A stretch of 64,000 nt of DNA from the IMG/VR virus record IMGVR_UViG_3300046167_000798. The stretch is one strand, 5' to 3'. A program made the position numbers and the translations under genes. Source of the stretch: a virus. Its lineage: Duplodnaviria; Caudoviricetes. Under the pieces are notes generated by a model, which worked only from the letters and a program-made list of their open reading frames with translations, was not told the DNA's origin and did no database searches. Shown one piece after another: positions 3,039 through 52,813 of the stretch (its first letter is position 1; every line of letters starts with the position of its first letter).

Positions 3039-3734
3039 TTAAAATAATTTATTCGAGGGAACTATTGTATCCAAATTTATTTTTAATTGTTTTGCAAAAA
3101 TAGATATTGCTCCACCTTCACCGTAACCACAACCATTTTCTGACCATTTATTACATTCGTGTCCTTTTAATTCATAACCTGAATATCCTTCCCATTTTCT
3201 ACCTTTTGACCAGGTTTCTTCCCAAATAGATTGAACTTTAAAAATACTATCTTTTAGTTGATTAAATTTACTAGGTATATATGGTACTGATGTTATACGT
3301 TCATGTATATAATTACATACAACATTTTTAAATCCTAATTGTTTATATACTTCTATTAGAGCAATATAAGATGGATTCTTTTTTAGATTTTTCAATGGAA
3401 TATCTTCATATTGAAATATTTTATGTGAATATATTGTTTCGCTATCGAATTTTTTATGAGTTCCATTTAACATTGATTGAACTTGTTCCATATGAACCGA
3501 ATCACAATCAAAATATGTAACCCTCTCTTTATAGTTATCTATTATATTAAATAATAAAATCAATTTTTCAAAATAACTAAAATCTTTTCTTTTATATTCA
3601 ATTATATTACAATTTGGAAAGTATTCAGGAAAATCTGTGTAAACGTACATCTTATGATTTTTTGATATCGAATCAATATCATTGGAATATTTTTTACACC
3701 ATTCTTCACCAACACTTAAAGTACAGAAAATCAT
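3039..3734 (-). CDS. GT-A-like nucleotide-diphospho-sugar transferase-like protein
   Basis: YFDCDS DxD-like motif, YTD motif; likely start MIFCTLS at 3734 (ATGA overlap). Confidence 0.5.
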   Translation of the reverse strand: MIFCTLSVGEEWCKKYSNDIDSISKNHKMYVYTDFPEYFPNCNIIEYKRKDFSYFEKLILLFNIIDNYKERVTYFDCDSVHMEQVQSMLNGTHKKFDSETIYSHKIFQYEDIPLKNLKKNPSYIALIEVYKQLGFKNVVCNYIHERITSVPYIPSKFNQLKDSIFKVQSIWEETWSKGRKWEGYSGYELKGHECNKWSENGCGYGEGGAISIFAKQLKINLDTIVPSNKLF

Positions 3735-4315
3735 ATTAAATTTCTTTTTGTAACAATCCAACTATTATCTTCAAATTTATGTGTAGGAATTCCAACTACT
3801 TCATCTACCGCACTACAAACACCTGGCCATGATTCATGATAATCATGTCCACCTATTACACCACCTTTTTTTAATTTAGGTAAGTATAATTCTAAATCTT
3901 TTTTTACTGATTCATATTCATGGTCAGCATCTATGTAAATAAAATCAATACTATTATCTTCAAATTTACTTACTACGTTATAACTAAAATCTTTATGATG
4001 AATTATATTATCAAAGTATCTTGTATTTAATTTAAATTCCCTTTCAACATCAACCCAACCAAATCCATTTTTTTCATTGAAAGATTCAGTTCCTTTATGT
4101 GGTTCTATTGAGTGTATTGTTTTAAATAATCCTATTGATGCAAACATCATTGTAGATTCTCCCATATAAGAACCAATTTCAATCATAGTTTTTGATGATT
4201 TAGTTGAAAATATAGTTGTAAGTTTTCTTAATAAATCGGATATACCTTTGTATTGATTATTGTGATTATAGTTATTTTCCCAATCACCTGACATATTAAA
4301 TCTCTGAGTTATCAT
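3731..4315 (-). CDS. class I SAM-dependent methyltransferase (Methyltransf_24-like)
   Basis: IEIGSYMGEST, DFIYIDADHEYESVKKDL, GGHDY. Confidence 0.85.
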   Translation of the reverse strand: MITQRFNMSGDWENNYNHNNQYKGISDLLRKLTTIFSTKSSKTMIEIGSYMGESTMMFASIGLFKTIHSIEPHKGTESFNEKNGFGWVDVEREFKLNTRYFDNIIHHKDFSYNVVSKFEDNSIDFIYIDADHEYESVKKDLELYLPKLKKGGVIGGHDYHESWPGVCSAVDEVVGIPTHKFEDNSWIVTKRNLI

Positions 4316-5031
4316 ATTGTAGATTTTGGTGTAACTAAAGTTCTATCATATTGAACATGGTCAATATCTTTTACATCTGTATTTTCAGATGAAATATATT
4401 CCCACGCAAGAGAATATCTATTACTATCAGTTGTGTTAGTATAACACCCATGAGCTATATTAATATTAAAAAATACTGCGTACGGACCTTTTTGAATTAA
4501 ATCTATAATTTCATACTGATTTATAATATTATCAGGTATCCATTTGATTCCATCATATAAACTTGAAGATGTATGTGGAAGAAGTTCTGGTAAATTATGT
4601 GTACCTTTTGCAATTCGTAAACAACCATTTTCTTTATTAGTATCTGTAAGATACACCGCACAACTCACTATATCATTTGGAGAACCTCTAAAGTAGTTAT
4701 TATCCTGATGCCATAGTGTTGAAGAACCATTTTTCTCTTGTGGGAAAAACTTACTTATATAACAATCTACACTAGAACCTATATTGGATATGGATTGAGC
4801 AATTTCAATCAATCTTTTATTTTTAGCTAATTTTAAAAATTGAGGTTCAAAGGTAACTGCACCTTGAAGTTTGTTTATCGTTCCATTTAAATTAAATTGC
4901 CATCTACTATCTTTTGTAGTATTGTTTGTTAATTCATCTGAAACCTTTAGTAAACTTTCATGTTCCTCGTTTGAAAGAAATTCTGAACCTGGTACGATTA
5001 TGTACCCATTATTTTTATAAAATTCTTTCAT
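4312..5031 (-). CDS. phytanoyl-CoA dioxygenase (PhyH) family 2OG-Fe(II) oxygenase
   Basis: WHQD HxD motif, ENGCLRI, distal HG, RYSL. Confidence 0.85.
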   Translation of the reverse strand: MKEFYKNNGYIIVPGSEFLSNEEHESLLKVSDELTNNTTKDSRWQFNLNGTINKLQGAVTFEPQFLKLAKNKRLIEIAQSISNIGSSVDCYISKFFPQEKNGSSTLWHQDNNYFRGSPNDIVSCAVYLTDTNKENGCLRIAKGTHNLPELLPHTSSSLYDGIKWIPDNIINQYEIIDLIQKGPYAVFFNINIAHGCYTNTTDSNRYSLAWEYISSENTDVKDIDHVQYDRTLVTPKSTI

Positions 5032-6014
5032 ATTAATGTATCTTTCCTAAACAAACCTTGCCAAGAACCTTTTAAGGGTTTTGTTCTATTAGGGTCTGGT
5101 TCAAAAGAATTAGATTTACTAATCTCTTTTCTAATTTGTATTTTCCTATCATTCAGTTTCAATTCTGAAACATCTAATTTTTCTGTGTTAGTAAGATAAC
5201 CCCATTCTATCATAAGATTATATGTTTTCATTGATATCATTTCTGACCAAGCTAATCCACCATGTCCATCATCCCAAACACCACTTGTTTCAGATTTAAA
5301 TCCATATCCATTTTGTTGAATACTATATTGATGACACATATCATTTTTATCAGTAATAAGTTTATCTTTATAAAGTTTATCATACCAAATTGGATTGAAG
5401 CAAAATGCATTAGGTAATGGTACTAACCAATTTAACTCAAATAGTTCCATAAAGGATGAAAATGTAACTTGATTTTGCTCTATCCTTCGAATAACATCAT
5501 TTTCAGAAAATGTGGTTTTCATATACTCACTCATTATAGGAGATATGCGTTTTAAATAATTTTTATCATCTTCTGAAGGTGTTCTTTGATAATCAAATAC
5601 TGGACCTCCATTCCCATATTCACCTCTATCCAAAAATGTAGAGTCTTTTACATTATAGTTTATTAAAAAATGTTTTTGTTTCTCTACTGACCAAAACTCC
5701 GCTCTTGAAGCTTCTGAAAATTCTATTAGAAATAAATGTTCTTTTGGTTTAAAGTTAGGTTGATTTACTATTTCCATTACTTTACGATAAACTCTCTGAT
5801 TACCCCAACCACATTTTGCATGATTTGAAACTTTTATATCCTTGGGTAACAGTTTTTTCAATTGACCTGGCCAACTAAATGGAAATGTTGTTTCTTCTTT
5901 TGGATATTCATCTATATAAGGTCTGTATGTCTCTTTTACTACCTCATACTTCCACCATTCAAATCCAGCTCCTTCTGTAAAAGATGTACCAAAACAATGT
6001 ATTTCTTTAATCAT
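5028..6014 (-). CDS. SGNH-hydrolase-like protein
   Basis: CFGTSFTEG block I, SWP, N.AKCGWGN block II, DDGH block V. Confidence 0.6.
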   Translation of the reverse strand: MIKEIHCFGTSFTEGAGFEWWKYEVVKETYRPYIDEYPKEETTFPFSWPGQLKKLLPKDIKVSNHAKCGWGNQRVYRKVMEIVNQPNFKPKEHLFLIEFSEASRAEFWSVEKQKHFLINYNVKDSTFLDRGEYGNGGPVFDYQRTPSEDDKNYLKRISPIMSEYMKTTFSENDVIRRIEQNQVTFSSFMELFELNWLVPLPNAFCFNPIWYDKLYKDKLITDKNDMCHQYSIQQNGYGFKSETSGVWDDGHGGLAWSEMISMKTYNLMIEWGYLTNTEKLDVSELKLNDRKIQIRKEISKSNSFEPDPNRTKPLKGSWQGLFRKDTLI

Positions 6015-6637
6015 ATCAAATTATCCCTTAATGGAGGATGATTTTCATCAATCCATGAGTATTCTTTATTTCCTTCACTATTTTCTTTTCGTAATCTATG
6101 TGATGGATTTAAATACTTATCCCATATATTATCAAATTGTTCATCACTTATATCCAATCCCAAAGATTGTATAGTTTTCTTAGATAAATTATATTCATTA
6201 AAAATATCATCATACCATATTAAATTACAAGGTATGGTTCTATAAAAGTTAAATAATATTGAGTAAGAATGAACAACATTTTGCATTACATTTGGTGATG
6301 GTTTTTGAGTTGGAGTATATTCATTTATATATCCAAATTCTCTTGCATTTTCTAAACTTATAAGAGTATCTCTAATATTATCTCTTGCAAGTAATAAAAC
6401 TTTATCATATCTATGTACATTTTCTGTAACCCAAATATCATTCTGTCCACAAATAGTTTTTAGTATTGTATTATCTAATACAGTACCATCAAAATTTAAT
6501 TTTCTATCTTTGTATTCACCATTCCATAAATGTTTGTTAAACGGTTCTATTACCTTTTCAAGATTCAAAACATCAGATATAGCTTGTTGAAGTGATGAAC
6601 TTCCTGTCCTTCCATGTGTTAACAACAATATTTTCAT
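6011..6637 (-). CDS. sulfotransferase-like protein (Stf0-like P-loop)
   Basis: THGRTGSSSL 5'-PAPS-binding loop, EPFN, LARDN…S 3'-binding motif. Confidence 0.65.
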   Translation of the reverse strand: MKILLLTHGRTGSSSLQQAISDVLNLEKVIEPFNKHLWNGEYKDRKLNFDGTVLDNTILKTICGQNDIWVTENVHRYDKVLLLARDNIRDTLISLENAREFGYINEYTPTQKPSPNVMQNVVHSYSILFNFYRTIPCNLIWYDDIFNEYNLSKKTIQSLGLDISDEQFDNIWDKYLNPSHRLRKENSEGNKEYSWIDENHPPLRDNLI

Positions 6638-7482
6638 AATTTCATCAGTTTATTATAAATAACAGTCTCAGAGTCTATTAAATCTATTTTACTTGATTTA
6701 ACCAATTTTTCTATGATGGGTTTGGTGGATTTGTTAGATGGGCCTCTCTTTCCCATGTTTGTATGAAATATATTTGAAATATTTTCTTTATCAATATCTA
6801 CAATCCTAACATTTTTTATATTCTTAGGGTTTATTATATAATCATAGGTTTTTAAGTAAGGAGCATAATGAGTATTATCCCAATTTGAACTAGATTCAGT
6901 TTTTATAAATTTTATTGCCATTTTCGTTAACACATCAACTGCATTAGTTGGAATGATTCTCATTTTAAATACACTATTTACTGGCCAGGTTCCGATATTT
7001 TTTAATACATTAAAACTTTTCTCATTTATCCACATATTTTTATTTGATGTTATATAATCATAATAATCTATGGTATTTTTATCGAATTCATCATCTAGTA
7101 TTGAATTGTAATTTCTTTTTTTAAGTTTTTGCATCATACATACTTTAACATAATTTTCAAAGAAATGATTTATTGAAGCAACGTGTCTTTTTAAAGGATG
7201 TCTACATAGAAATATAAGTTTTTTTCTACATTTTCCATGATATATATTATTTAGTGTTTTATCTATTCTTGCATTAGCATGTTGTGCTACTTCTGAATGT
7301 TTAAAGTAAAGTTCAGAATCTAAAGGGTCTTCGTTATAGTAAAGTTCTTTTACTTTACTCAAATCATCATCATAAAAAAGAGAATCAAGATATCTTGATG
7401 CAACTTTTAATGCAGTAAATACTATGGTATCATCATTTTCATAATAACGTATTCCTGTTGGTCTTATGGTTTGAAGCATCAC
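6634..7482 (-). CDS. sulfotransferase family 2-like protein
   Basis: LKVASR (cf. PKxAST) and CRHPLKRHVAS (cf. RxPxxRxxS), HYAP. Confidence 0.55.
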   Translation of the reverse strand: MMLQTIRPTGIRYYENDDTIVFTALKVASRYLDSLFYDDDLSKVKELYYNEDPLDSELYFKHSEVAQHANARIDKTLNNIYHGKCRKKLIFLCRHPLKRHVASINHFFENYVKVCMMQKLKKRNYNSILDDEFDKNTIDYYDYITSNKNMWINEKSFNVLKNIGTWPVNSVFKMRIIPTNAVDVLTKMAIKFIKTESSSNWDNTHYAPYLKTYDYIINPKNIKNVRIVDIDKENISNIFHTNMGKRGPSNKSTKPIIEKLVKSSKIDLIDSETVIYNKLMKL

Positions 7483-8484: not shown

Positions 8485-8982
8485 TTAATAAGTTATCAAA
8501 CATTTAACATCGTGGTCTTTTACAATACCAATATCCATTAAACATAGTTTATCGATAACTTCTAATCCATGACCATTAACTAAACCTTCAGCAGCTTTCA
8601 TAGTACCACCAGTTGCATATACATCATCTACGATTACAACTTTACCCAAATCGAATTGAGGTAGATAAGCCATTTCAAATGAATCTTTACCATATTCCAA
8701 TCCATAATCAACTCTCATCAATCTACTATTTCCTAACTTACCTTTTTTTCTGATTAACCTAACTCCACCACCAAATAACATTGAAAGTGCGGATGCAAAT
8801 AAGAATCCTCGTGATTCTAATCCTATCCAATAATCAGGTTTGGTTTCTAAGAGGTTACCCATATCTTTGATTGCATCCATAAACACAGTATGATTTGCAA
8901 GTAATGGTTGAATATCTCTGTAAGTTATTCCCTTGATAGGAAAGTTATCTATTTTTCCTATGTGTTCTTTATAGTAATTCAT
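8485..8982 (-). CDS. apt: adenine phosphoribosyltransferase
   Basis: NFPIKGITYRDI, GLESRGF, RKKGKL, LEYG, PRPP motif VVIVDDVYATGGT; likely start MNYY at 8982. Confidence 0.92.
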   Translation of the reverse strand: MNYYKEHIGKIDNFPIKGITYRDIQPLLANHTVFMDAIKDMGNLLETKPDYWIGLESRGFLFASALSMLFGGGVRLIRKKGKLGNSRLMRVDYGLEYGKDSFEMAYLPQFDLGKVVIVDDVYATGGTMKAAEGLVNGHGLEVIDKLCLMDIGIVKDHDVKCLITY

Positions 8983-9287
8983 GAATACGATACACAAGTT
9001 AAATATTCTTCTACTTTTTCTGAAAATAACATATCATAAACTTTCTTACCAACTTCACTTGGTTCAATAGTAATATGTTCTGATGCATATCGTGTTGCAC
9101 TCATAATATCATGTTCAGAATATCTTGGTCTTGTTGAATCTAACTCACCATTTACATATTCTACAAATTCTTTTGATTCTAACCATTTTTGGTATTGATA
9201 ATCTTCATCTGCTCTTGAGTATAATTCTTCATTTAACTCTTCTTCATTTAGATTCAAACCATCAAGAAAATTTTTAGTTCTTCCCAT
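8979..9287 (-). CDS. hypothetical acidic protein
   Basis: 102-aa ORF, ATGA overlap with apt. Confidence 0.6.
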   Translation of the reverse strand: MGRTKNFLDGLNLNEEELNEELYSRADEDYQYQKWLESKEFVEYVNGELDSTRPRYSEHDIMSATRYASEHITIEPSEVGKKVYDMLFSEKVEEYLTCVSYS

Positions 9288-10183: not shown

Positions 10184-10915
10184 TTATCCAAATATTTCTA
10201 CTCTTATATCTTTCATCATTTCAAATCCTCTATCTGAAAGATGTTTTCTACCTTCTGAAATCATCCTATCCCAACCACAGAAATATACCCAAGGGTTTTT
10301 ATCCATATCATCTATCAACTTAAGATAGTGTTGGTGAACATAACCTTTAGCAAATTCTGGTTTATCTTCTCTTGATAAACATGGAATGAATTCAAAATTT
10401 GGTAATTCTTCTTGTATCTTTTCTAATTCTTTTCTATACAATAAATCAGATTCTCTTCGTGTACCAAAGAATAATTTTATATTTTTAAATGGAATTTTAT
10501 TCTGATGAAGATAATTTATCATTGAACGAAATGGTGATATACCTGAACCTGTTGATACAAAAAAGATATCCCTATCCATTAGATTATCTGGTAAAGTAAA
10601 TACACCCATTGGCCCATTGTAATAAAATTCATCACCTATCTTAGAATCAAAGAATAGTTTCCTACTCATTTGTCCACCTTCTAAATAGGTAACAATAAGT
10701 TCAAATTTATTTGAACCATCAGGAAAAGATGCAACTGAATAGTTTCTTTTTACCATATGCTCTGGTACACCATTTGCTTCATCTGATTCTAAAAATCCCA
10801 ATTGTACCAATTGACCTGGTACAAAGTTTATATTATCATAAAGAGGAGATTCAAATATGAACCTCCAATTTGATTTTGTTTCTTTTATAATTTCAGTTAA
10901 TACTGCTACATTCAT
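10184..10915 (-). CDS. ferredoxin-NADP(+) reductase (FNR) family FAD oxidoreductase
   Basis: RNYSVAS, GPMGVF, STGSGISPFRSM, FCGWDRM, terminal EIFG. Confidence 0.9.
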   Translation of the reverse strand: MNVAVLTEIIKETKSNWRFIFESPLYDNINFVPGQLVQLGFLESDEANGVPEHMVKRNYSVASFPDGSNKFELIVTYLEGGQMSRKLFFDSKIGDEFYYNGPMGVFTLPDNLMDRDIFFVSTGSGISPFRSMINYLHQNKIPFKNIKLFFGTRRESDLLYRKELEKIQEELPNFEFIPCLSREDKPEFAKGYVHQHYLKLIDDMDKNPWVYFCGWDRMISEGRKHLSDRGFEMMKDIRVEIFG

Positions 10916-11160: not shown

Positions 11161-12387
11161 TTAAAACTGAGGGATATCATCCCCTTCAGTACTTTCGGTG
11201 TCCTCTACTTCTTTGAATAGAGGTTCACCATTTTCATCTTTTTGGTACTTCTGTACCAATTGTTTAATATAAGTTCTTTCAGAATCAACACCACCATCTT
11301 GTGAGAAGAATGGGTAGATTGAAATCTCAGCGGCCTCGTTTAATTCGAAACCATCATAAAGTAACCCAGCCATCTCAACAGATGCTCTGGTAGAAACCAT
11401 CGAAGTTAGTTTACCATTCTCACTCATAGATTGAGTTCTAGTGTGGTGAGATATCTCAGCAATTGCCTTCAAGTCATCTTCGTTAACTTCAGGGAACATG
11501 AACTTTAATAATCCAAATTCTTTAACATCATCAAGAACATCCATTTCGATAGTAACAAATCTATCTAAGATTGCTCTATCCATAACTCTCGTTGAGGTAT
11601 ATTCATTACCAATGTTAGCGGTAGCTACAAAGGTAACACCTTCAGCCACATTCACAATTGGAGAACCATCAGCCTCATCCAATCTCAAGTATCTTTGTCC
11701 TTGGTCAAGAACAGTCATTAAGATGTTCCACGCATCTGGGTGAGCTCTCGATAACTCATCTAACAGAATAACTGCGTTTGGAGTTTTGATTGCCGTAACA
11801 AAAGCGGATTCTGAAAAGTATGTACCTTTTTGTTTATCGAAGTGAGTGTTACCAATTAAGGTAGCTCTCGGGTCTTGAGTTGCCCCAAGGTTGAAGTAGA
11901 AATCTGGTCTATCCAACGCGTTCACTAGAGCTTTGGAAGCCATGGTTTTACCACATCCACTTGGACCGGTCATCATAATATTTTTAGCCCTCACAGCACT
12001 TCTGATAAGATATTTCCATTTCAGTTCTTCCATAACCAATTCAGTTGGTTTAAGAGATACAGAACCTTTGTGGATAAAATCTTTGATTGCGGTGTGGTCA
12101 CCTTTATCTTCGAATTGTACACCACCTTGGTCTGTATTCATAGGAATAACCAAAGAGTTATAAACATCCATATTTACTTTTCTGTAAGATTTCTTACCAT
12201 TCTTATTGATGTAAGCCTGAACCGCCATTCCTTGATTGAAGGCTGATTTTCTTACACCTGTGGTAGCTCCTAGAGTACCAACTTTTACCCCTTGGGTATC
12301 GATTAATTTGAAAGTGTTACCAAACTTTTCAACTTTGTACACTTCTGTGGAAACATATCCAACTTTAAATTCTTTCATTTCACTCAT
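11161..12387 (-). CDS. MoxR/CbbQ/CobS-type AAA+ ATPase (AAA_5)
   Basis: Walker A GPSGCGKT, Walker B ILLDELSR, sensor TAN, MDRAILDRF Arg finger. Confidence 0.9.
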   Translation of the reverse strand: MSEMKEFKVGYVSTEVYKVEKFGNTFKLIDTQGVKVGTLGATTGVRKSAFNQGMAVQAYINKNGKKSYRKVNMDVYNSLVIPMNTDQGGVQFEDKGDHTAIKDFIHKGSVSLKPTELVMEELKWKYLIRSAVRAKNIMMTGPSGCGKTMASKALVNALDRPDFYFNLGATQDPRATLIGNTHFDKQKGTYFSESAFVTAIKTPNAVILLDELSRAHPDAWNILMTVLDQGQRYLRLDEADGSPIVNVAEGVTFVATANIGNEYTSTRVMDRAILDRFVTIEMDVLDDVKEFGLLKFMFPEVNEDDLKAIAEISHHTRTQSMSENGKLTSMVSTRASVEMAGLLYDGFELNEAAEISIYPFFSQDGGVDSERTYIKQLVQKYQKDENGEPLFKEVEDTESTEGDDIPQF

Positions 12388-12420
12388 AATTATTTGTTTT
12401 AAGGTTTATTAATTATTAAC

Positions 12421-12465
12421 TCATTTACTATGTAAATATACGAAAAATATTTCATATATCCAAGC
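12421..12465 (-). promoter_or_regulatory. early promoter plus conserved leader
   Basis: Sense GCTTGGATATATG…TTTTTCGTATATTTACATAGTAAATGA. Confidence 0.75.
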
Positions 12466-12475
12466 CTTTTTTCAT

Positions 12476-14560
12476 TTATTTTTGTAAAAATAATTGGTTC
12501 ATAGTTTTGGTGATTTGGTTAAGATTTGTAACATCTACAAACTTAGCTCCTTTACCATACATTGTTTGAAAACTTCTTTTTTCATATCCACTACAACCAT
12601 AGTCTGATACGAAGTAGGATAAGGTTTTGATTCCCATACTTTCAATCATTTTAACCATCTTACCAGTATGTCTTTCAGCGGAATCACCAGAGTAGTAGAA
12701 ACCAGGTCCACCATAGTAAGGTTGTCCATCTGATAGATTCAAGAAATATGAATCTAAATCATTGTTAATTGGAATAAATGATTTCATAATAGCCTCAAAA
12801 CATAATCCTTCTGGTGTTGTACCATTTGGTCTTAAACCACCGAACATTTGTTTTACTTTAGAAAACTTATCTGTTTTAGAATCGTAAGCCATAACGATAT
12901 ATGGTTTCTCATTTTGAGTACATCTGAAAGTTACTTGAACATTTAGATTAGGAATCATATCAACTGCCTTACACATTGCAACTACGTTAATCATCGTATT
13001 TCTCCACTTCTCACCATTCATAGATGAACTAGCATCTATTGATATATGTAAGTTAGCCTTTTTGTAAGAATCAACTTCTGAGAATTGGAATACATTTTCA
13101 TTACCAAATCCTAAAGATGAAATCATTCTCTTATCAATTCTACCAACTTTCTGTCTGTTGAAAACAGTAGTTCTATCTTCACCTCTCACTTGAAGTTTCT
13201 TACCTAACATTGTACCAAGTTTGATTCCTTTCTGAACCTCTTCTTGATAATCCATTTTGATTCCACCATCCCAATAATCGTTTCTAGTCATTGGAAACAT
13301 TTCTGATTCAAATAATCCCTTAGTCATTTTATTAACCACGATACATTGAACTGTTTGATTACCATAGTAACCTTGGTTGAAATCTTTTCCAACTTCTTTC
13401 ATTTCAGAACCACTTTCTTCAATAGCATTTAGGTTCTTAGAATCTGTTTTAGTAATTGAAGTTTTTTGAATATCACCATCCATAAACTTCTTTTGTTTCT
13501 CAATCTTCTTTTTAAGTAAATCTTTTTGTTTATCTGTTAATTGAACTGAGTTTGTTGAAGGAGAATTATCTTCACTTGGTTCACCTTCCATGTTATCAGG
13601 TAAGTTACCAACACTCATTGAATTACCACCAGTTGGTGTTTCATCTTTATCACCACCCATTGGAGATTCACCAAGTTCTTTTAATAACTCATTGAAATCT
13701 TCATCACTCATTCCTTGAGAAGAACCACCATTACCATCATCAGAACCTTGCTCATCGGAAGAAGAACCATCACCATTACCACCCTTTTGTGGTTCAGTAT
13801 CATCTGAAGTTGGTTGATTGATATTTGATAAAATTACTTTGAACATCTCAATAGCTACTTGAAGTGATTCACTTGAATCTTTCAATCTACTGATTTTGTT
13901 CAAACCAACTAATTTGTAAATCTTTCTCAAACCTTTCAGAGCCGAAAGTTGAGTATTTTTATTATGTAAGTTGATAATTCTGAACATATAAGAATCGATT
14001 GTTTCATCAGTATGTTCATCAGATAAGAGAGCCTTATCGATTAATTTATCATTGAAGTACTTATCGTACATTTTTCTGTAATAATCTCTGTAACCAGGTG
14101 CTGATTTGAATACGAAGTTATCAATTCTTCTATCTTCAACATAGTTCCAAAGGTTTTTAATAGTTTCTTGAGTATTATAAATACCTTTCTTGATAGCCCC
14201 ATCAGTTATGTGAGTAGGTATATGAGAAGATAAATCTAATAACAATTGAAAATTTGAAAGTTTGATGTGAGAACCCTCGTGAAGTGCCAGTCCAACTGCC
14301 ACATCAAAATCTTTTGGTTCTGTTATCCTACTTCCAATAACAACTGATTTACCATCAGTATAAGAATCACCTCTCTCTTTGAACTTAACTGGTATTGATT
14401 CATTTGTTACAATGTTAACGAAGTTAGATATTGCTCTTTTAGAAGAAGCTAATTTGTATAAATCTAGGGATTTCTTTTCCTTATCAGAAAGTTGGTTAAT
14501 GATGATATCATCTGTATCGAAATCATCATACCAAAAGGAAGAATTGTTGTATTTACTCAT
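12476..14560 (-). CDS. vWA-domain protein with N-terminal HExxH region (CobT-like partner of the AAA+)
   Basis: ALHEGSH; EDRRID; acidic G/S/D linker; MIDAS IDASSSM, GTTPEG, LSDGQP. Confidence 0.85.
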   Translation of the reverse strand: MSKYNNSSFWYDDFDTDDIIINQLSDKEKKSLDLYKLASSKRAISNFVNIVTNESIPVKFKERGDSYTDGKSVVIGSRITEPKDFDVAVGLALHEGSHIKLSNFQLLLDLSSHIPTHITDGAIKKGIYNTQETIKNLWNYVEDRRIDNFVFKSAPGYRDYYRKMYDKYFNDKLIDKALLSDEHTDETIDSYMFRIINLHNKNTQLSALKGLRKIYKLVGLNKISRLKDSSESLQVAIEMFKVILSNINQPTSDDTEPQKGGNGDGSSSDEQGSDDGNGGSSQGMSDEDFNELLKELGESPMGGDKDETPTGGNSMSVGNLPDNMEGEPSEDNSPSTNSVQLTDKQKDLLKKKIEKQKKFMDGDIQKTSITKTDSKNLNAIEESGSEMKEVGKDFNQGYYGNQTVQCIVVNKMTKGLFESEMFPMTRNDYWDGGIKMDYQEEVQKGIKLGTMLGKKLQVRGEDRTTVFNRQKVGRIDKRMISSLGFGNENVFQFSEVDSYKKANLHISIDASSSMNGEKWRNTMINVVAMCKAVDMIPNLNVQVTFRCTQNEKPYIVMAYDSKTDKFSKVKQMFGGLRPNGTTPEGLCFEAIMKSFIPINNDLDSYFLNLSDGQPYYGGPGFYYSGDSAERHTGKMVKMIESMGIKTLSYFVSDYGCSGYEKRSFQTMYGKGAKFVDVTNLNQITKTMNQLFLQK

Positions 14561-14941: not shown

Positions 14942-15949
14942 TTAAATTAATCCCTTATTATTTAGGTTTTTTTTGAAAATAATCTTTCTCCAATGATTAT
15001 TGGGTTCTCCCGATAATGAATCAACTCCACCAAGTGCAGAACAGTTATCAGGATATCCTATTTTTTCATCATAATCAAAATCTTCTACATCTTCTATGAA
15101 TTCATACATATCAGGATTAACTCTCTCTAACTTTGGAATATCTTTTCTCCAAAGATGTATTGGTAATTGTGTCTGAGATTTATACAAATTACTTATATGG
15201 TCATCTGGTAGGTCTTTATCTCCTGTAAATGAATGAATCATAGTTCCCATTTGTCCTATAAGTGATTGATATGTGGCAAGTGAAGTGTGTAATATATCAT
15301 CTTCTTTATCTAATAGTAAATCAGCTGGCATATTTATATCCTTTATACTATCAAAAAGTTCTCTTAAAGAATTAACACTAATCATATATGATTGAGCTCC
15401 TGGTGCTTCGAATCTTCTGATATGTTGTAATCTATTATTTAAGTACCTTCCTCTTATATTAGGTATTGCTCTACCCAACCAAAGTATATCAAATGAGAAT
15501 TTTTTAATATCTTTTATCAATAAAGGATATTCACCATCTTGAATAGAATCAATTAATGCAGTTGTTGGTCTAGCATCATCCTCTAAGAATAAAAAATACC
15601 TTAGTGGATTTCCATTAGAATCAAATCTATTTTCAGAGTTACTAGAATCAAATTCATCCAAAGCCATTTCATACGCCTTCTGATGAGATAATGCAACTGC
15701 GATAATATTTTTGGAAAGATTTCCTGATGGGTCTATAAATGTATCTAATCTACCATCTTGTATCATAGATTTAATATCAAGGTCTTTACCCATTATAGCA
15801 TCTACAAACTCATATTCTAAATCTGACCATTCCCAAGCTTTAATGAATTCTTTTCTTCTATAACTATCCTTTTCAGATATTACATAAATTTTATCTGCTC
15901 CAAAGTTTTGTAAATTGAAATGTATGTTATTTTTAGGAACTAAAGACAT
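14942..15949 (-). CDS. glycosyltransferase family 25-like
   Basis: YVIS…RR..F, VALSHQKAY, LFLEDDA, GAQSYMIS, PADLLL. Confidence 0.8.
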   Translation of the reverse strand: MSLVPKNNIHFNLQNFGADKIYVISEKDSYRRKEFIKAWEWSDLEYEFVDAIMGKDLDIKSMIQDGRLDTFIDPSGNLSKNIIAVALSHQKAYEMALDEFDSSNSENRFDSNGNPLRYFLFLEDDARPTTALIDSIQDGEYPLLIKDIKKFSFDILWLGRAIPNIRGRYLNNRLQHIRRFEAPGAQSYMISVNSLRELFDSIKDINMPADLLLDKEDDILHTSLATYQSLIGQMGTMIHSFTGDKDLPDDHISNLYKSQTQLPIHLWRKDIPKLERVNPDMYEFIEDVEDFDYDEKIGYPDNCSALGGVDSLSGEPNNHWRKIIFKKNLNNKGLI

Positions 15950-18890: not shown

Positions 18891-18924
18891 CACAAAGATA
18901 CGAAAAATTTATTTAATTTCCAAA
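18891..18924 (-). promoter_or_regulatory. Bacteroidota sigma70-type promoter (canonical)
   Basis: Sense TTTG-N20-TATCTTTG. Confidence 0.8.
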
Positions 18925-19224
18925 TTTTTGTCCAAAAAATTCATAATTTTTATTTACTGACTCCAATTCACCATTTTCTATAGCAGAATCTTCATCATCA
19001 TAAAACGCATCAACAGGACATTCTGGTAAACAAGCTCCACAATCGATACACTCTGCAGGATTAACATAAAGTTGTTTTCCTTTAAGTTCTTCTTTACTCA
19101 TTCCTTCAACTTCTCTCCCTGCACCTTCAATATCAATCGGTCCATGGATACAATCAACAGGACAAACTGTAACACATATTGTATCACATACTCCATCACA
19201 AGCTTTTCCTATTATATAACTCAT
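18913..19224 (-). CDS. dicluster (7Fe/8Fe) ferredoxin
   Basis: CDGVCDTICVTVCPVDCIH and CIDCGACLPECPV. Confidence 0.9.
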   Translation of the reverse strand: MSYIIGKACDGVCDTICVTVCPVDCIHGPIDIEGAGREVEGMSKEELKGKQLYVNPAECIDCGACLPECPVDAFYDDEDSAIENGELESVNKNYEFFGQKFGN

Positions 19225-19982: not shown

Positions 19983-21036
19983 TCAGCCACTTCTTATTAT
20001 CTCTTTGAAAAATTTATGAACTTTAATTGCATATGATTCTCCAAATTCTTTTATTATATGTGATATTGTTAGAGCAGTTACAAACGGTATTGATTTATTA
20101 GCTCCACCAATGTGATTGTAATTAGAGAAACTGAAATCAAATCTTTTAGATAAATCTTTTTCTGATTTAAATTCAGTATCATAAGTATGTTCTTGTTTAC
20201 ACATTGTACAATATTGATTATTTTCAATTACTAAAGGATAATTTTCGGTATCATGTGGAAGAGTAACAGGTGGTCTTGTAAATAAAAATGGAGAATCCTC
20301 TACTTTAATTTGTTCATTGGTATATAATTCAATTATTTCTTTATATTTTTTATTATTTTGTTTTAAAAATAAATTTACAGTAAATTGTTCTAAGAAAATA
20401 GAGGAACTATAATCTTTATCAAATTCTTTCTTTAATAATTTATAATATACTAATGCATCATCTATTGATTTTTTAAATATATCCACATCATCTCTTACAC
20501 AAATCATATTAAAGTTGGGTATCTCAGAAATTTTGATTTCTTCGTGTGGAAAATCTTCCGATTCATTGAATGTATCCTTATTTCTAATATAGAAAGAAAC
20601 ATAATTATTTAACAATGAATGTAGTGGATTTGAATTTAGAATATCTTCAGGTTCTAGTATCTCCAATGTATCAGTTAAGTGATTCATATCAGGATGTGAG
20701 AAAAATATATGGAGATTTTCTATCTATATTTGGTTTGTTAAATATAAGTGTATCTAAATCAAAGTGTATAAATGGTTCATCTAAAGTTTTCATTGCAATA
20801 AGTTTAGGCATTGCAAACATTTCGGCTGATTCATTTTTTAGTACATCTATGTTATAATCATATTCAAATCCTATTTTTTCAAACCAATATTGTTGAACTT
20901 TGTTTGTATATAATGTTACATTACCATAGTGTTTTTTCAATAACAAGGAACTTAACATAATAATGTAGGCTTCTTCCTTAGATAAATTAAATTTACCTGG
21001 AGCCTTATGTGGTATCCAACTTTGTATTACTTTCAT
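19983..21036 (-). CDS. DUF6734-like / GT-A-like protein, split by a 1-nt frameshift at ~20703
   Basis: LYT, FAMPKLIAM..LDEPFIHFDLD; removing one T joins …PYIFSHPDMNHL…. Confidence 0.55.
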
Positions 21037-21248
21037 TATTTTTTATCTTTTAAACCATATTTAGAAAATTTGTACCAAGCTCTTTCGTGAAAATAATAAA
21101 GAACCATTTTTGTTAATAGTTCTACACCACCAATAGCAACTCCAAATTTCCAATTACCTGTAATAATCCATGAAAGAAGCATAGTATCTAATGTACCTAT
21201 AATTCTCCAACTTATTGTTTTTAATATGTGTCTCTTTCTACTTACCAT
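21036..21248 (-). CDS. DUF2061 membrane protein
   Basis: KTISWRIIGT.DT, KMVLYYFHERAW. Confidence 0.85.
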   Translation of the reverse strand: MVSRKRHILKTISWRIIGTLDTMLLSWIITGNWKFGVAIGGVELLTKMVLYYFHERAWYKFSKYGLKDKK

Positions 21249-21604
21249 TATAATTTACCCTCTTTTCTCATTTGTTCTCGTATCTTGGTAGCTGATATCT
21301 CTTCGATTTCTTTTGGTGGTATATGTTCAATAACTTCATAACCAACACCCCTACCATAGTTAATTGATTCTATATCAGGTATTATTGTTGTAATAACTCT
21401 ACCATCTTGTATCAATTCTTTTAACTCACCCTCATGAACCATCTTTTCTATTTCTTTTGCAGTCCAAGGTTGATTTTCGTTTGGTTCAACATCTCTAATT
21501 GCTAAACATACATTCTTTCCTTCTTGTAATCTTTGATTGATTAACCAAAGATGACCTTGATGTAGAGGTTGCCATCTACCTATAAACATTGAATATTGTT
21601 TCAT
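21248..21604 (-). CDS. small HxGH nucleotidyltransferase (cytidylyltransferase-like)
   Basis: FIGRWQPLHQGH and ISATKIR motifs. Confidence 0.8.
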   Translation of the reverse strand: MKQYSMFIGRWQPLHQGHLWLINQRLQEGKNVCLAIRDVEPNENQPWTAKEIEKMVHEGELKELIQDGRVITTIIPDIESINYGRGVGYEVIEHIPPKEIEEISATKIREQMRKEGKL

Positions 21605-22089
21605 TATATTAAACTTTTTGTTTCTTTACTTATATTATTACTTGTTGCCCAAATTGCAATTGAGTATCTAATTCCTTCTGTTACTTTTTTTACTTCATGA
21701 ATTGTTGATGAATCAAACACAAAAGCATCTCCTTGATTACCACTTGCCCTCTTTCTATTAATATATAAATCACCACCTGAGAAAGTGTTATTTTTTGATA
21801 AATTTATAATAATTGTTTTTAATCTCAATCTACTTGGGTCATTGACACCACCTCTATCAGCATGAGGTAGAAAGAAAAAACCCTTTTCATATTTGTTAAT
21901 GTTAAAAACAGGTTTATTAATAATACCAATAGTGTTTAATTTTTTTTCTAAAAATTTAAAATTACTATAATCTTTAATATGAAGAAATTCTAACTTTGAA
22001 ACACCATATGATTTTATAGAATCATATTTTTTTGTAAAATCTATAATATATTTACACTCGGATTCTGTTAAAAAATTTTCTAATTTCAT
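21604..22089 (-). CDS. 2OG-Fe(II) oxygenase (prolyl-4-hydroxylase-like)
   Basis: PHAD, FSGGDL, HEVKKVTEGIRYS. Confidence 0.85.
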   Translation of the reverse strand: MKLENFLTESECKYIIDFTKKYDSIKSYGVSKLEFLHIKDYSNFKFLEKKLNTIGIINKPVFNINKYEKGFFFLPHADRGGVNDPSRLRLKTIIINLSKNNTFSGGDLYINRKRASGNQGDAFVFDSSTIHEVKKVTEGIRYSIAIWATSNNISKETKSLI

Positions 22090-23132
22090 TATATTAAACT
22101 TGTTGTTTTTTCATATAAGTGATTAAAATTATTTGTAAAGTATGGTAAATCTTTCATTGTTTCCAATACTTCTAAAAATTCTTTATGGTATTTATGGTTT
22201 GAATTTGTAACATTTTTTTCATTATATTCTTCTTCACTATAAGTTCCCCAATTTGTTATTGCATTATAAAATACATCAAAGTAAGATTTACTTCCTTTCA
22301 TATAATTAGTTATCATATCATAAAATAATTTCATTTCTCTGAAATTACTATCTTGTACTACAAATGAAAAACTAAATCTATTAATTGTTGATATCTTACT
22401 AATAAATTTTAAATTATCTAAAAGAACATCCCACTTACCACCAATTCTTGTTTTTGTTTCATATGTTTCTTTAGTTCCAGCATCTATTGATATTTCACAA
22501 GTTTTTACATAAGGATGTATTGCACTTAATCTATTCCACATTTTTTCATTCCATAAACTTCCATTAGTATGTAAATGAATTGATTTTAACTTTTTAAATT
22601 TAGTAGAATCTAATTTTTCTAAAAACTCTCTAAACGATTTAGAATAAAATGGGTCTGCTGTACCTGTAAGATATAATATTTTTACAGTTGATGATATCTC
22701 ATCTGTAATTTCTTTAAGTTTTACTTCTACTTGGTCTCTATCTTTACCATAGTAGTTTATCAATTCACTTCTACAAGATGGACATTGGAAATTACAACTT
22801 CTATCAAAACAGAAATTTACTGTTTTTATTTTTTTATGTGTTCCAAATGATTGTAGAGATTTAGTATCTTTTTTAACAAACTTTGAAGATAATTTATTAT
22901 TTTTTAAACCAGATAGATATGGACATTGTTTTTCATCACAATATTTATACGAACCATCTAATATAGATTCTCTAACTTCTTTTGATTTATCACTATTGAA
23001 ACTAGATTGTATTGTATCACCATCCCATACATCTACTGGTAACCAAGATGGACAACACAAATACTGTTTATCGTCATATACCTCTGTATATTGAAAAGGC
23101 ATAGAACAGATGTATTCTTTTTTATGAATCAT
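22089..23132 (-). CDS. radical SAM protein with N-terminal SPASM/twitch-like Cys cluster
   Basis: CNFQCPSC (CxxxCxxC); N-terminal CSMPF…LCC…CDEKQCP; TNGS, ISIDA. Confidence 0.85.
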   Translation of the reverse strand: MIHKKEYICSMPFQYTEVYDDKQYLCCPSWLPVDVWDGDTIQSSFNSDKSKEVRESILDGSYKYCDEKQCPYLSGLKNNKLSSKFVKKDTKSLQSFGTHKKIKTVNFCFDRSCNFQCPSCRSELINYYGKDRDQVEVKLKEITDEISSTVKILYLTGTADPFYSKSFREFLEKLDSTKFKKLKSIHLHTNGSLWNEKMWNRLSAIHPYVKTCEISIDAGTKETYETKTRIGGKWDVLLDNLKFISKISTINRFSFSFVVQDSNFREMKLFYDMITNYMKGSKSYFDVFYNAITNWGTYSEEEYNEKNVTNSNHKYHKEFLEVLETMKDLPYFTNNFNHLYEKTTSLI

Positions 23133-23604
23133 TACAACTTATTTAATTTCGTAAGTTGATTTATTATTTTAGAAAATGATTTTTCAGGTGAATCTTTTGT
23201 AGTATCTACATCAATGAAGTTGGTTTCAGGTGCTTCATAGTTTTTTGAATGAAAGTGGTCTCTTTCACGAGGTTCTGAACAATGTACATAAAATTCTTGG
23301 AAGTTTTCTAAACCTATTCTTTTTTTGAACTCTTCTCGTAACCATCTTGGAGGTGCTACGAGAGAAACAACTACATCACACCCATTCTTATGATGAATTC
23401 TGTAATCATCTGAGCATTACGAATATTTCTTTCTCTACCTTCTGGTGTGTAATCTTTATTAACAGTTAGTTCTCTTAAATCATCACCATCGAGATGAAAA
23501 ACATCCTTTCTCCAATTACGTTTTTCTGATTTTAGAAACTCATGTAATTTAGAACCCAATACAGTCTTTCCAGCTCCTGGTTGACCTGTAAACCAATATA
23601 CCAT
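23132..23604 (-). CDS. cysC: adenylyl-sulfate (APS) kinase, split by a 1-nt frameshift at ~23393
   Basis: WFTGQPGAGKT, LDGDDLR, GRERNI; other frame continues HKNGCDVVVSLVAP…YEAP…VDTT to stop at 23132. Confidence 0.85.
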
Positions 23605-43013: not shown

Positions 43014-43907
43014 TTATTGAATTTTTTTTAATTCTGGTAGAAAATTATCGTGGGATATTTTTTTAAATTCCTCTCTTCTATCGTAAACTGAGAGAGAATT
43101 TAGGTAATGATAATGTCCTCTATATTTGTAGTTTTCACAAACTACTAGGTTTTTTATTTTGAATTGATGAATTTCTTCATTTTGTTCTCTAACGAGTTTT
43201 TCACTACCCACCATTAAAAAGGTATCTTCATAACCATAGTGAGCAAATGAATCTGGTATTCCAATTCTATTTAGAAGTTTTCCACTTATACAAGTGAACC
43301 ATCCTCCTGCAAATTTAAATCTTGATTGAGGGGAGTTTGAATTATTTACAGGTACAATACTAATATCTCCTTTGATACCACTATCTTTATAAGGGTCATT
43401 TGTTTTTTGATATTCAAGTGGTTTATCTAAGAATTGTTCATTTACAATACAATCCCAAGTATTATCCCAAACTCTAACGATTTCAGGTGTGATTACTGAT
43501 AATGGATAATCTTTATTTATACCTTGAATAGAAGATACAATATAAGATAGGGTTCTTTCTTCAAATATAATATCAGTATCTAACCAAATAAAGTAATCAG
43601 CATCATTATGCTTATTGAGTGAAAATCTTCTCTGAGATACACATCCTAATATTTCTTCAGATACTTGAAATGTTTTTACACACCAATCAGTATGATATGA
43701 TAACTTTAAAAATTTATCTACAAAGTATTTTTTATTTATAGATGATTTATTCCAATCAACCATTTCACCTGAAGTACATAATGTTACATCAAGATTCCAA
43801 TCAATTCCTTTTGGAGAATAATATTGTGCCCTACGAAGTTGATTTAGAGTATTTTCTAATTCATCAATCTCGTAAGGCAAACAAAATATGGATATTACTA
43901 TTTTCAA
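43014..43907 (-). CDS. GT-A fold glycosyltransferase-like protein
   Basis: IWLDTDIIF DxD; FAGGWFT; YGYED. Confidence 0.65.
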   Translation of the reverse strand: MKIVISIFCLPYEIDELENTLNQLRRAQYYSPKGIDWNLDVTLCTSGEMVDWNKSSINKKYFVDKFLKLSYHTDWCVKTFQVSEEILGCVSQRRFSLNKHNDADYFIWLDTDIIFEERTLSYIVSSIQGINKDYPLSVITPEIVRVWDNTWDCIVNEQFLDKPLEYQKTNDPYKDSGIKGDISIVPVNNSNSPQSRFKFAGGWFTCISGKLLNRIGIPDSFAHYGYEDTFLMVGSEKLVREQNEEIHQFKIKNLVVCENYKYRGHYHYLNSLSVYDRREEFKKISHDNFLPELKKIQ

Positions 43908-43908
43908 T

Positions 43909-44889
43909 TTATGATAAATCTACTTGTGATAATACTGAATCCCAATTATCAAACTTGATTCCTTTATCATCAATATATGCAACTGCTCTCGGTTTTTGTG
44001 AAGTTACTTTAGAAACGTATTGATTTAAATCATGTTCTTTTAACCATTCCCAAATTAATTGAGTACCACTTTGTCCATTTACTAAACCTCTATCTTTTCT
44101 CGCTTTTGCAGAATATACAATTACAACATATTTCTCAGATAGTTTTTGTAATGCTTCTCTTGCACCTTCTACTGGTTCATCATAAACAGTTCCATCGTGG
44201 TATCCTTTTGAGTTCTTGTGAATAACACCATCGAAATCTACACCGATGTTTACTAATTCATCAGGATAAGAATGTTCTCTTGTTGCAGATGCACCACCTT
44301 GTCTATTTAGTAATTCTAAATCTTCTGGTTTGTTTTGGAAAATAGGAGGACAAACTTTACCACTACCATGTGTAAGTTGATAAGTAAGTAATAATGTAAG
44401 TACTTCTGATGTGTGATAATACTCAGCACCTAATACAACTTCTGATAAGTTGTTAATCTTTTCTGGTATTGGAGCTGATGTAATCATTGCTATTTGCATT
44501 CCTCTTGATTCACCATCTTCTAATGCTCTCATGATATCAATTGATTTACCACTTGATGAGATACCAAGAATTAATGTTTTCTTTAATTGTTCTGGTGTTT
44601 GAGATACTGTTCTCTGTCTTACCCAATGAACCATCCAATCATCAAACGAAGAATCGTTGATTAGAGAGGTTGCTACAATGGCACTACCAGGTGCCTGTGC
44701 ATTCTTTGTTCCATTTGATAACCTTGAGATATCAGTTGCTGCATGGTCTGCAACTCCTAAGTTTCCACCATGTCCTAATACAAATATATCAACACAATCG
44801 TTGAATTTTTCTTGTATATCATTCCACTCTTTTGTATTGATGACTTCTAAGAATTTATCACCAATGTTTTCGAAATTTAATCCTGCCAT
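43909..44889 (-). CDS. SIS-domain sugar-phosphate isomerase (GmhA-like) fused to HAD domain
   Basis: GHGGN, ISSSGKS; C-terminal GVDFDGVIH…YIDDK. Confidence 0.75.
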   Translation of the reverse strand: MAGLNFENIGDKFLEVINTKEWNDIQEKFNDCVDIFVLGHGGNLGVADHAATDISRLSNGTKNAQAPGSAIVATSLINDSSFDDWMVHWVRQRTVSQTPEQLKKTLILGISSSGKSIDIMRALEDGESRGMQIAMITSAPIPEKINNLSEVVLGAEYYHTSEVLTLLLTYQLTHGSGKVCPPIFQNKPEDLELLNRQGGASATREHSYPDELVNIGVDFDGVIHKNSKGYHDGTVYDEPVEGAREALQKLSEKYVVIVYSAKARKDRGLVNGQSGTQLIWEWLKEHDLNQYVSKVTSQKPRAVAYIDDKGIKFDNWDSVLSQVDLS

Positions 44890-44891
44890 AA

Positions 44892-45554
44892 TTATTTATT
44901 TTGTTTTAATTTATATATTATTTCTGCTGTTTGGAATTCAAAAGGAGTGTTGATATCTACTCCCTCGTATTCATTAAGTATAATAAAATTTGGTTTATCA
45001 CCAATAACTCGTGATTTATTTTTCATTATATTCTTATCTACAATTGTTATACCATAATTTATCATTTCAATATCAGGTAAATCCTGTGAATTTGGTACAT
45101 TATTTAAATCATAGTTAATAGGTTTACCATCTAACCACAAATGTCCTTTTACCAAAGAAGTTGAAGTTAAACTATCACATTCTGAATTCATGAATTGGTC
45201 TATAGCCTCTTCATGTTTTTCAGAACTAATGAAAGGAGAACATACAGGTGCCAGAAATATATAATCAGTATCAGTTGTTTTACCAATATGACCATGAAAC
45301 TCAGAATTAGAAGCTTCACTACTTGCAAAGTACTCTTCTCTTTTCTTTGTTTTTACACCATATGATTTTCCTATTTCAATCATTTTATCACAATCACTAT
45401 TGACTATGATTTCATCTATATTACTAACCTTTAATAAAGTTTGTAATTTTAAATCCAATAAGGTTGTATCACCAAATGGTTTAATATTTTTATTAGGTAC
45501 TCTCTGAGAACCTTTACGAACCGCAACTACTGCTGTAACTTTTCCTTGTTTCAT
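44892..45554 (-). CDS. neuA: CMP-ulosonic acid (acylneuraminate-type) cytidylyltransferase
   Basis: VAVRKGSQRVPNKN, VNSD, DINTPFEF. Confidence 0.8.
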   Translation of the reverse strand: MKQGKVTAVVAVRKGSQRVPNKNIKPFGDTTLLDLKLQTLLKVSNIDEIIVNSDCDKMIEIGKSYGVKTKKREEYFASSEASNSEFHGHIGKTTDTDYIFLAPVCSPFISSEKHEEAIDQFMNSECDSLTSTSLVKGHLWLDGKPINYDLNNVPNSQDLPDIEMINYGITIVDKNIMKNKSRVIGDKPNFIILNEYEGVDINTPFEFQTAEIIYKLKQNK

Positions 45555-46246
45555 AACTGTCCTCCATTTACATCAATTACAGAACCATTAAGATAGTTTG
45601 AAAGTTCTGAACATAAGAATACAATTGGCCCTACTTGGTCATCAACTGTACCTAATCTTCTCAATGGAATATTTTCACATAGTTTATCTTGTTCTTCTTT
45701 TGTCATCGATTGTTCTAACATTGGAGTAAGTGTTTGAGATGGACAAGTACAATTTACATGAATACCTCTTGGTCCTAATTCATGAGCAAGTTGTCTTGTT
45801 AATCCAATAATACCTGCCTTACTAGAAGTATAATGAACTCCACTTACAATACTTTTATTTCTACCAGCAATTGAAGAAACATTTACTACCCTACTTCCAC
45901 TTTTCATTAATGGTATGGATTTTTTAATTATGTAATAAAAGGAACGAAGATTTGTATCAATTACAGAATCCCATTCATCCATTTCTATTTCTTCTATTTT
46001 TTTACAAAAGTTTATACCAGCAACATTTATTAAGAAATCAATACCATTATGTTGAAGGCCTAAAATATCAGTTATTGCATCAAAGAATGTATCTATACTT
46101 TCCTTACTTGAAATATCTACTCCATCTTTTCTTGAAACTCTGATTACTTTTGCACCAAGTTCTTCAAACTTATTTGCTACTCCTAATCCAATTCCTTTAG
46201 ATGAACCAACAACTAAAGCTATTTTATTTTGAAAATTAATCTTCAT
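45551..46246 (-). CDS. SDR-family oxidoreductase
   Basis: GSSKGIG, NVAG, YTSSKAG, NCTCP. Confidence 0.9.
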   Translation of the reverse strand: MKINFQNKIALVVGSSKGIGLGVANKFEELGAKVIRVSRKDGVDISSKESIDTFFDAITDILGLQHNGIDFLINVAGINFCKKIEEIEMDEWDSVIDTNLRSFYYIIKKSIPLMKSGSRVVNVSSIAGRNKSIVSGVHYTSSKAGIIGLTRQLAHELGPRGIHVNCTCPSQTLTPMLEQSMTKEEQDKLCENIPLRRLGTVDDQVGPIVFLCSELSNYLNGSVIDVNGGQL

Positions 46247-46682: not shown

Positions 46683-46711
46683 ATATACGAAATTTATTTG
46701 AATTATACAAA
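46677..46711 (-). promoter_or_regulatory. Bacteroidota sigma70-type promoter, internal to the sugar cluster
   Basis: Sense TTTG…TTTCGTATATTTG. Confidence 0.7.
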
Positions 46712-52797: not shown

Positions 52798-52813
52798 TAT
52801 GTGTATGATTTTA

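Follow-up and report, generated by a model that had tools for sequence, protein, structure and literature searches.

The 64,000-nucleotide stretch of viral DNA analysed here (IMG/VR record IMGVR_UViG_3300046167_000798, Duplodnaviria; Caudoviricetes; the whole stretch is called the window below) encodes a 118-amino acid nucleotidyltransferase of the HxGH superfamily, in one operon with a gene (cysC) for an adenosine 5'-phosphosulfate (APS) kinase. The family of this small enzyme is a candidate third type of ATP sulfurylase (ATP + sulfate -> APS + pyrophosphate, PPi), derived from the nicotinamide mononucleotide (NMN) adenylyltransferase NadM. We consider this assignment probable because the family is found where activated sulfate is used while the ATP sulfurylases Sat and CysDN are missing or decaying. 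To our knowledge, Sat and CysDN are the only two microbial routes to activated sulfate that are recognised.

In a preliminary description of the window the enzyme had been taken for a stripped-down ATP sulfurylase, with a NadM-type NMN adenylyltransferase as the alternative. Each proposal was right in part. A role in APS supply is strongly supported by gene fusion, gene neighbourhood, mutual exclusion with CysD and Sat, and in-place replacement, whereas the ancestry lies with NadM and not with Sat.

Family and ancestry of the small enzyme

At 90% clustering 7,159 relatives of the small enzyme were counted, and a profile search yielded 1,251 clusters at 50% identity (E<=1e-10). Members were found in viruses, in cultured phages and at no fewer than 474 places in GTDB genomes of many phyla and archaea. 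In the cultured phages Xylella Salvo and Bacata and Stenotrophomonas DLP6 the family member is part of a kinase fusion of 243-248 amino acids. Databases label the family 'cytidyltransferase-like' or NMN adenylyltransferase; no description of it was found in the literature searched, subscription journals being largely outside the coverage.

Comparison of profiles by hhalign gave a probability of 98.8 for NadM, over the whole length, and of 10 for Sat. Since the profile matches NadM from end to end and does not match Sat, the resemblance to NadM reflects ancestry, and descent from a truncated Sat was rejected. The fold comparison ranked NadM first (Z 10.5; root mean square deviation 3.0 over 110 residues), followed by PPAT (Z 10.3), Sat (Z 5.5-8.0) and the TagD and Fom1 types (Z 6.4-7.7). 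A Foldseek search of the PDB returned no match at E<=0.001. By sequence, profile and fold the ancestor is a NadM-type NMN adenylyltransferase.

Two deletions separate the small enzyme from NadM. In the alignment to MJ0541, profile positions 5-75 and 84-113 correspond to residues 4-76 and 110-138, and the eight positions in between (76-83) replace thirty-three residues of NadM (77-109), so that about 25 residues are gone. The deleted stretch contains the NadM helix after beta-3 with its conserved Trp, and the GS motif after beta-2 is replaced by an invariant RD (R37). We take the Trp-bearing helix and the GS motif to belong to the NMN pocket of NadM, the Trp stacking on nicotinamide. R37 would add positive charge near the would-be site of the NMN phosphate. 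The motifs with which NadM binds ATP (GRFQP-HxGH and SxT-xxR) are retained. In 228 members the near-invariant residues were G9, R10, H15, H18, R37, G84, R85, V87, G88, S104, T106 and R109 (numbering of the window protein); H15 and H18, which form an HxxH motif of the Sat type, are conserved at 99%.

The small enzyme falls outside the families of Sat and CysDN and, despite its descent, outside that of NadM. It scored 27.8 bits against a cut-off of 181.2 with TIGR01527 and 41.7 against 127 with NF002243. With the Sat model PF01747 the window protein gave no match at E<=0.1, and a relative (L048) reached 18.4 bits against a cut-off of 24.3. The sulfate-binding QxRN motif of Sat is absent, GRWQ standing at its position, and so is the N-terminal PUA-like domain (118 amino acids against about 390 in Sat); the long homologues carry CysC, not PUA. 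The sequence YGRGVG (YGRDVG in Salvo and DLP6) lies after beta-4 in the dimer model described below, and hhalign does not align this loop to the VGRDHAG of Sat.

The tree was built from 117 columns, too few to count fusion events or to root the family, and was therefore used only for well-supported clades. The closest cellular relatives of the window enzyme are from Marinimicrobia (83-84% identity), and these copies (L084, L085) nest within the viral clade beside the window gene. This suggests a recent exchange between phage and host, in either direction, and points to a candidate host group.

Two other arrangements were seen. In the fusion proteins of some phages (P0222, P0259, P0321, P0296; L048:5383-6345, L049) the small enzyme is preceded by Cys-rich, HNH-like domains that resemble homing endonucleases, and at L031:5738-6345 the gene is present in two tandem copies, the first one truncated.

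Association with APS kinase genes

The APS kinase domain PF01583 was found on about 60 of 76 longer homologues and on 53 of 62 long representatives of the 50% clusters. Both domain orders occur, many of the fusions contain a canonical CysC with the RDxKGLY and FTG motifs, and one of them (P0178) passes the TIGR00455 cut-off. Fusions of the small enzyme with DUF2061 and with a sulfotransferase also exist.

The preliminary description had proposed gene-neighbourhood statistics with cysC as a check, and these bore it out: 73 of the 74 viral loci that were informative had a cysC fused to the small gene, next to it or no more than 2 kb away (it abuts the small gene in 38 and is fused to it in 19). 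This clustering is far beyond chance. DUF2061 was present in about 50 of 80 viral loci, and the most frequent other neighbour was a true sulfotransferase (PF13469; 22 loci), an enzyme type that uses 3'-phosphoadenosine 5'-phosphosulfate (PAPS).

In cultured Xylella, Xanthomonas and Stenotrophomonas phages (L081:8578-9324, L083:8578-9318, L082:6590-7321) the stretches fetched contain the kinase fusion and no annotated sulfotransferase. At two archaeal loci (L137, L152) cysQ is followed by the fusion, whose kinase domain scores more weakly, and this by another cysC that stands alone.

Co-occurrence with CysD and Sat in cellular genomes

Fifty cellular genomes carrying the gene were compared. APS kinase was present in 49, Sat in 1, CysD above the cut-off in 4 and a shorter CysD-like protein in 4.

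As a control within one order, 251 Flavobacteriales genomes were examined. All ten carriers have cysC. CysD was found in none of them against 94 of 99 cysC-positive non-carriers (Fisher P 7e-11, a value that overstates independence since the ten carriers are related), and in two further non-carriers cysD is cut by the contig end. Sat was found in neither of the groups compared. The operon of the carriers reads cysC-[small gene]-...-cysQ followed by sulfotransferase-like genes, that of the non-carriers DUF2061-cysC-cysD-cysN-cysQ, and the two genes that flank the locus in the carriers flank it in one cysDN genome as well. The small gene thus takes the place of cysDN in the Flavobacteriales operon. 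DUF2061 also adjoins cysC-cysDN in this order.

In five Nitrospiria genomes of one family the gene directly follows the APS reductase gene in an rrf2-sir-cysH operon, where Nitrospira-type relatives have sir-cysH-trpD-like-cysD instead; CysD was not found in any of the five. Their sole Sat domain is damaged in four of the five, with QTRHP, QTRSP, QTQSL or a Tyr for the first His, and with GWD, GQD or EPN for GRD. In the same genomes the fused CysC (84-90% identical) and all motifs of the small enzyme are intact. The QxRN, HxxH and GRD motifs are needed for Sat activity (PMC6607087; for motif roles see also PMC3779200), and such decay is what a takeover by the small enzyme would leave behind. 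In the Sat-CysC fusions L164, L185, L186 and L187 the APS kinase is conserved while the catalytic motifs of the Sat domain are being lost, and the annotated 'sat' is probably dead.

In Dadabacteria with a single-chromosome assembly a canonical CysC was present in all eight genomes and APS reductase in all five tested, and neither Sat nor CysD was found in the eight. NadD was present in each of five carriers tested (four Dadabacteria, one Flavobacteriales), and an archaeal carrier (G039) retains a full-length NadM.

The genes of the Flavobacteriales, Nitrospiria and Dadabacteria carriers form one clade across three phyla (support 99/98), which amounts to about three independent displacements in three contexts. 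This clade and the window protein share all invariant residues. In a partial genome in which neither Sat nor CysD was found, a SAR406 copy 83% identical to the window protein likewise lies behind a canonical cysC.

The phage operon

The window has 30% GC and essentially all of its genes on the minus strand. It encodes a clamp loader, GroES, an endolysin-like protein and many tailoring enzymes, and its DNA was found in seawater metagenomes; it is a portion of a large marine phage. In the order of transcription the operon consists of cysC and the genes for a radical SAM protein, a 2-oxoglutarate (2OG)-Fe(II) oxygenase, the small enzyme, DUF2061 and DUF6734 (Table 1), all linked by TAATG stop/start overlaps. 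The preliminary description had read DUF2061, the HxGH enzyme and cysC as a clustered and co-oriented three-gene cassette. Shared strand and coupling were confirmed, but cysC is not adjacent: the radical SAM and oxygenase genes (22089-23132 and 21604-22089), which had been missed, lie in between. These inserts are variable, as one population contig (runs X1, X15) skips 21623-22144, i.e. the oxygenase.

A frameshift in cysC had also escaped notice. In the window one base of the gene is missing near 23394, and since this base is present in all four sequencing runs, the frameshift is a sequencing error and the gene is intact (157 amino acids); the possibility of a pseudogene was rejected on these grounds. 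The DUF6734 gene is split by an extra base near 20700, which both DNA runs lack. Given these single-base errors (23393-23395 and 20700), other split open reading frames (ORFs) of the window may be errors too. RNA runs gave contigs over cysC (X15) and over a gene closely related to the small one (X16); contigs cannot show transcription and were not used as evidence.

The phage kinase has the core motifs Walker A (GQPGAGKT), LDGDDLR (DGDxxR) and RERN (RxxN), with VAP in place of VSP. A 14-residue deletion in the lid is common to the other phage copies and to one SAR406 copy. In our reading the trimmed kinase would act on APS.

On the phage side other sulfurylases were looked for in the window and in genomes of related phages. 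In the 64-kb window none of Sat, CysD, CysN and CysH was found, tblastn giving no match to CysD/CysN, and neither Sat nor CysD was found in three related phage genomes rated 100% complete. The earlier statement that CysD and CysN are missing thus held for the window.

Table 1. Coordinates of the operon genes and of the candidate sulfotransferase genes in the window
Feature	Position	Strand	Evidence
DUF6734 gene, coupled downstream of DUF2061	19983..21036	-	
DUF2061 small membrane protein, conserved third module gene	21036..21248	-	PF09834 E 3.5e-24
118-amino acid NadM-derived HxGH adenylyltransferase, candidate minimal ATP sulfurylase	21248..21604	-	PF01467 E 4e-7; GRWQPLHQGH ... ISATKIR
2OG-Fe(II) oxygenase, operon insert absent in some strains, C-terminus -SLI	21604..22089	-	
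Radical SAM protein, operon insert varying between relatives, C-terminus -SLI	22089..23132	-	
Short 157-amino acid lid-trimmed APS kinase (CysC-like)	23132..23604	-	PF01583
Divergent sulfotransferase-like protein, candidate PAPS consumer, lead only	6011..6637	-	ESM-Atlas 0.97 to clusters with PF13469/PF09037
Divergent sulfotransferase-like protein (PF03567-like), lead only	6634..7482	-	ESM-Atlas 0.94 to cluster with 59% PF03567

Structure models and proposed reaction

The AlphaFold model of the monomer had a predicted local distance difference test (pLDDT) value of 91.6, with no strands in residues 77-97. When two copies were modelled with ATP, the dimer score was 0.89 (best control 0.00), pLDDT was at least 92, and the contacts agreed between runs by at least 98%; 20 of 30 solved homodimers and 1 of 23 single chains attained the mark set for this score. 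In the dimer model residues 77-83 of one chain lie between residues 3-7 and 90-94 of the partner, and this swapping completes the 3-2-1-4-5 sheet. The enzyme is thus predicted to form a homodimer by strand swapping, each active site being completed by beta-4 and the GRGVG loop of the partner. The model supports dimerisation rather than demonstrating it. In this arrangement the GRGVG loop would occupy, in trans, the topological position of the GRD loop of Sat, whose backbone binds ribose and sulfate (PMC3779200).

In the reaction that we propose, ATP would bind at HxGH and SxTxxR, the machinery of NadM for ATP binding and PPi release having been kept. Sulfate would be held by R10, R37 and the GRGVG backbone of the partner and would attack the alpha-phosphate; the loss of the NMN helices and the gain of the invariant Arg37 and the GRGVG loop would suit a small anionic acceptor. 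APS synthesis is thermodynamically unfavourable, and the coupled, trimmed APS kinase could pull it forward by removing APS as PAPS. Phage sulfotransferases would then use PAPS on an acceptor that probably belongs to the glycan or surface tailoring pathway of the window, yielding a sulfated product. DUF2061 travels with sulfate activation, in CysDN as well as in small-enzyme systems, and may, speculatively, deliver sulfate or anchor the enzymes.

Somewhat less firmly than the reaction as such, we regard a fuller picture as likely: that the family evolved independently into a third class of ATP sulfurylase, recruited from NAD synthesis by deletion of the NMN pocket, with one third or so of the size of Sat, no need of a GTPase and a strand-swapped dimer; that it has displaced CysDN and Sat in several phyla, in PAPS-dependent sulfation as well as in assimilatory reduction; and that it gives aquatic jumbo phages an autonomous two-gene supply of PAPS.

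Alternative explanations

Several observations weigh against an ATP sulfurylase. CysD or a CysD-like protein coexists with the small gene in 8 of the 50 cellular genomes, and at L094 cysN-cysD stands directly beside the fusion. Many of the metagenome-assembled genomes are incomplete. Besides the relatedness of the Flavobacteriales carriers, the clean cases amount to only about three displacement events by one gene clade, which is only about 45% identical to the window protein. No cysC lies near the small gene at one viral locus (L069). Sat binds sulfate through the Gln and Arg of QxRN, neither of which the family conserves, and the fold is closer to NadM and PPAT (Z 10.5 and 10.3) than to Sat (Z 8.0). 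Finally, the phage kinase lacks the RDxKGLY/FTG lid and scores under all CysC cut-offs, its intact relatives reaching 57-60 bits against 138.7 for TIGR00455.

Some of these points would fit an accessory of the APS/PAPS pathway, which binds or turns over APS or 3'-phosphoadenosine 5'-phosphate (PAP), works as a reverse-only sink of APS, or adenylylates another oxyanion (phosphate, selenate, phosphonate) for the trimmed kinase. Coexistence with CysDN, the lack of QxRN, the divergent and lid-trimmed phage kinase and the unfavourable thermodynamics of APS synthesis are all compatible with it. However, an accessory should accompany CysD or Sat, not exclude them, and it explains neither the decay of Sat in carriers of the gene nor the genomes with APS-consuming enzymes and no other source of APS. 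We therefore regard an accessory role as improbable.

A compact NMN adenylyltransferase is less probable still. Enzyme and kinase would then act as a NadR-like pair (nicotinamide riboside -> NMN -> nicotinamide adenine dinucleotide, NAD) in NAD salvage by the phage. NadM is the best match by sequence, profile and fold, and in the Salvovirus Bacata the fusion follows, and adjoins, a COG3236 gene, presumably NADAR. Yet the enzyme scores far under the NadM cut-offs, and the Trp-bearing helix and GS motif, which serve NMN binding in NadM, are deleted or replaced. The partner kinases are often canonical CysC, the hosts keep NadD, the archaeon keeps a full-length NadM, and the recurrent neighbours are sulfur genes. 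The NadM-type alternative of the preliminary description thus stands for the ancestry, and the deletion of the NMN-binding part speaks against it for the activity.

A cytidylyltransferase making a cytidine diphosphate-alcohol or cytidine monophosphate-phosphonate donor for the phage glycan genes is very improbable: the PF01467/TIGR00125 match and the 'cytidyltransferase-like' label, which stems from a generic HxGH domain model, and the many glycan genes of the window speak for it, whereas the TagD- and Fom1-type folds score lower and fusion with CysC and exclusion of CysD are left unexplained.

Other genes of the window

The preliminary description had named two sulfotransferase-like genes at 6011-7482. 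Neither ORF has a sulfotransferase match in Pfam, NCBIfam or PHROGs, but both have sulfotransferase neighbours in the ESM-Atlas (Table 1). With these neighbours and no match to a hidden Markov model, they are plausible leads only. At 43014-53662 a large sugar-nucleotide/glycosyltransferase cluster was recognised by eye (isomerase-, CMP-sugar synthetase-, SDR-, cupin-, HAD-, nucleotidyltransferase- and epimerase-like genes); it is a possible source of the sulfotransferase acceptor.

Seven unrelated tailoring enzymes end in -Leu-Ile (3731-4315, 5028-6014, 6011-6637, 14942-15949, 21604-22089, 22089-23132 and 58449-59012): methyltransferase-, hydrolase-, sulfotransferase- and glycosyltransferase-like proteins, two oxygenases and a radical SAM protein. 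These ends may represent a shared C-terminal tag. Also by eye, a ferredoxin (18913-19224), a ferredoxin-NADP reductase-like protein (10184-10915), an adenine phosphoribosyltransferase (8485-8997) and a CobS/CobT-like pair (11161-14560) were noted.

Implications

If the family has the proposed activity, genomes scored as negative for sulfate activation, such as those of Dadabacteria, some Flavobacteriales, Marinimicrobia, Patescibacteria and small archaea, have to be annotated anew, and the many 'orphan' cysC genes of phages encode one half of a full PAPS synthase that supplies sulfotransferases, not a fragment of sulfate assimilation. The family would also be a clean example of how a deletion can change the substrate of an HxGH enzyme. 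A PAPS synthase of 250 residues could serve enzymatic sulfation.

Comparison with known systems

The small enzyme shares with NadM and the archaeal NMN adenylyltransferases (TIGR01527, NF002243; PDB 1f9a, 1ej2, 2qjt, 2qjo) the fold and the motifs GRxQPxHxGH, NP-x-T and SxTxxR. Unlike NadM, it is about 25 residues shorter, has lost the Trp-bearing helix and the C-terminal helices, has RD for the GS after beta-2 and has acquired the invariant GRGVG loop, a predicted strand-swapped dimer and a context of sulfur genes.

With Sat (PF01747; PDB 1v47, 4dnx, 1j70) it has in common the superfamily, the HxxH chemistry, the proposed reaction and, in the dimer model, the place of a Gly-Arg loop after beta-4. 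It differs from Sat in the absence of QxRN and the PUA domain, in the sequence of that loop (YGRGVG against VGRDHAG), in its length and in the low profile-profile probability. As a candidate, the activity would have arisen separately from that of Sat within the superfamily.

Bifunctional PAPS synthases (human PAPSS1, 1x6v; Aquifex, 2gks; bacterial Sat-CysC) likewise have a sulfurylase-type domain fused to an APS kinase in both orders. The fusions of the present family have only 240-360 amino acids, and the window phage has two separate, coupled genes with a trimmed kinase lid.

The GTP-driven ATP sulfurylase CysD/CysN (TIGR02039) occupies the same operon position, after cysC or in sir-cysH, and has the same partners, cysQ and DUF2061. 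In contrast to it, the small enzyme has an unrelated fold and no GTPase subunit, and the two families are nearly mutually exclusive.

Phage cysC is a known auxiliary metabolic gene, common in aquatic viromes and transcribed; in the parts seen of two reports it is placed under assimilatory sulfate reduction and no sulfurylase partner is named (PMC10914622; bioRxiv 2021.01.05.425418). In no paper found was the small enzyme named as a partner of phage cysC. Unlike the published reading, the gene context described here points to a supply of PAPS for sulfotransferases.

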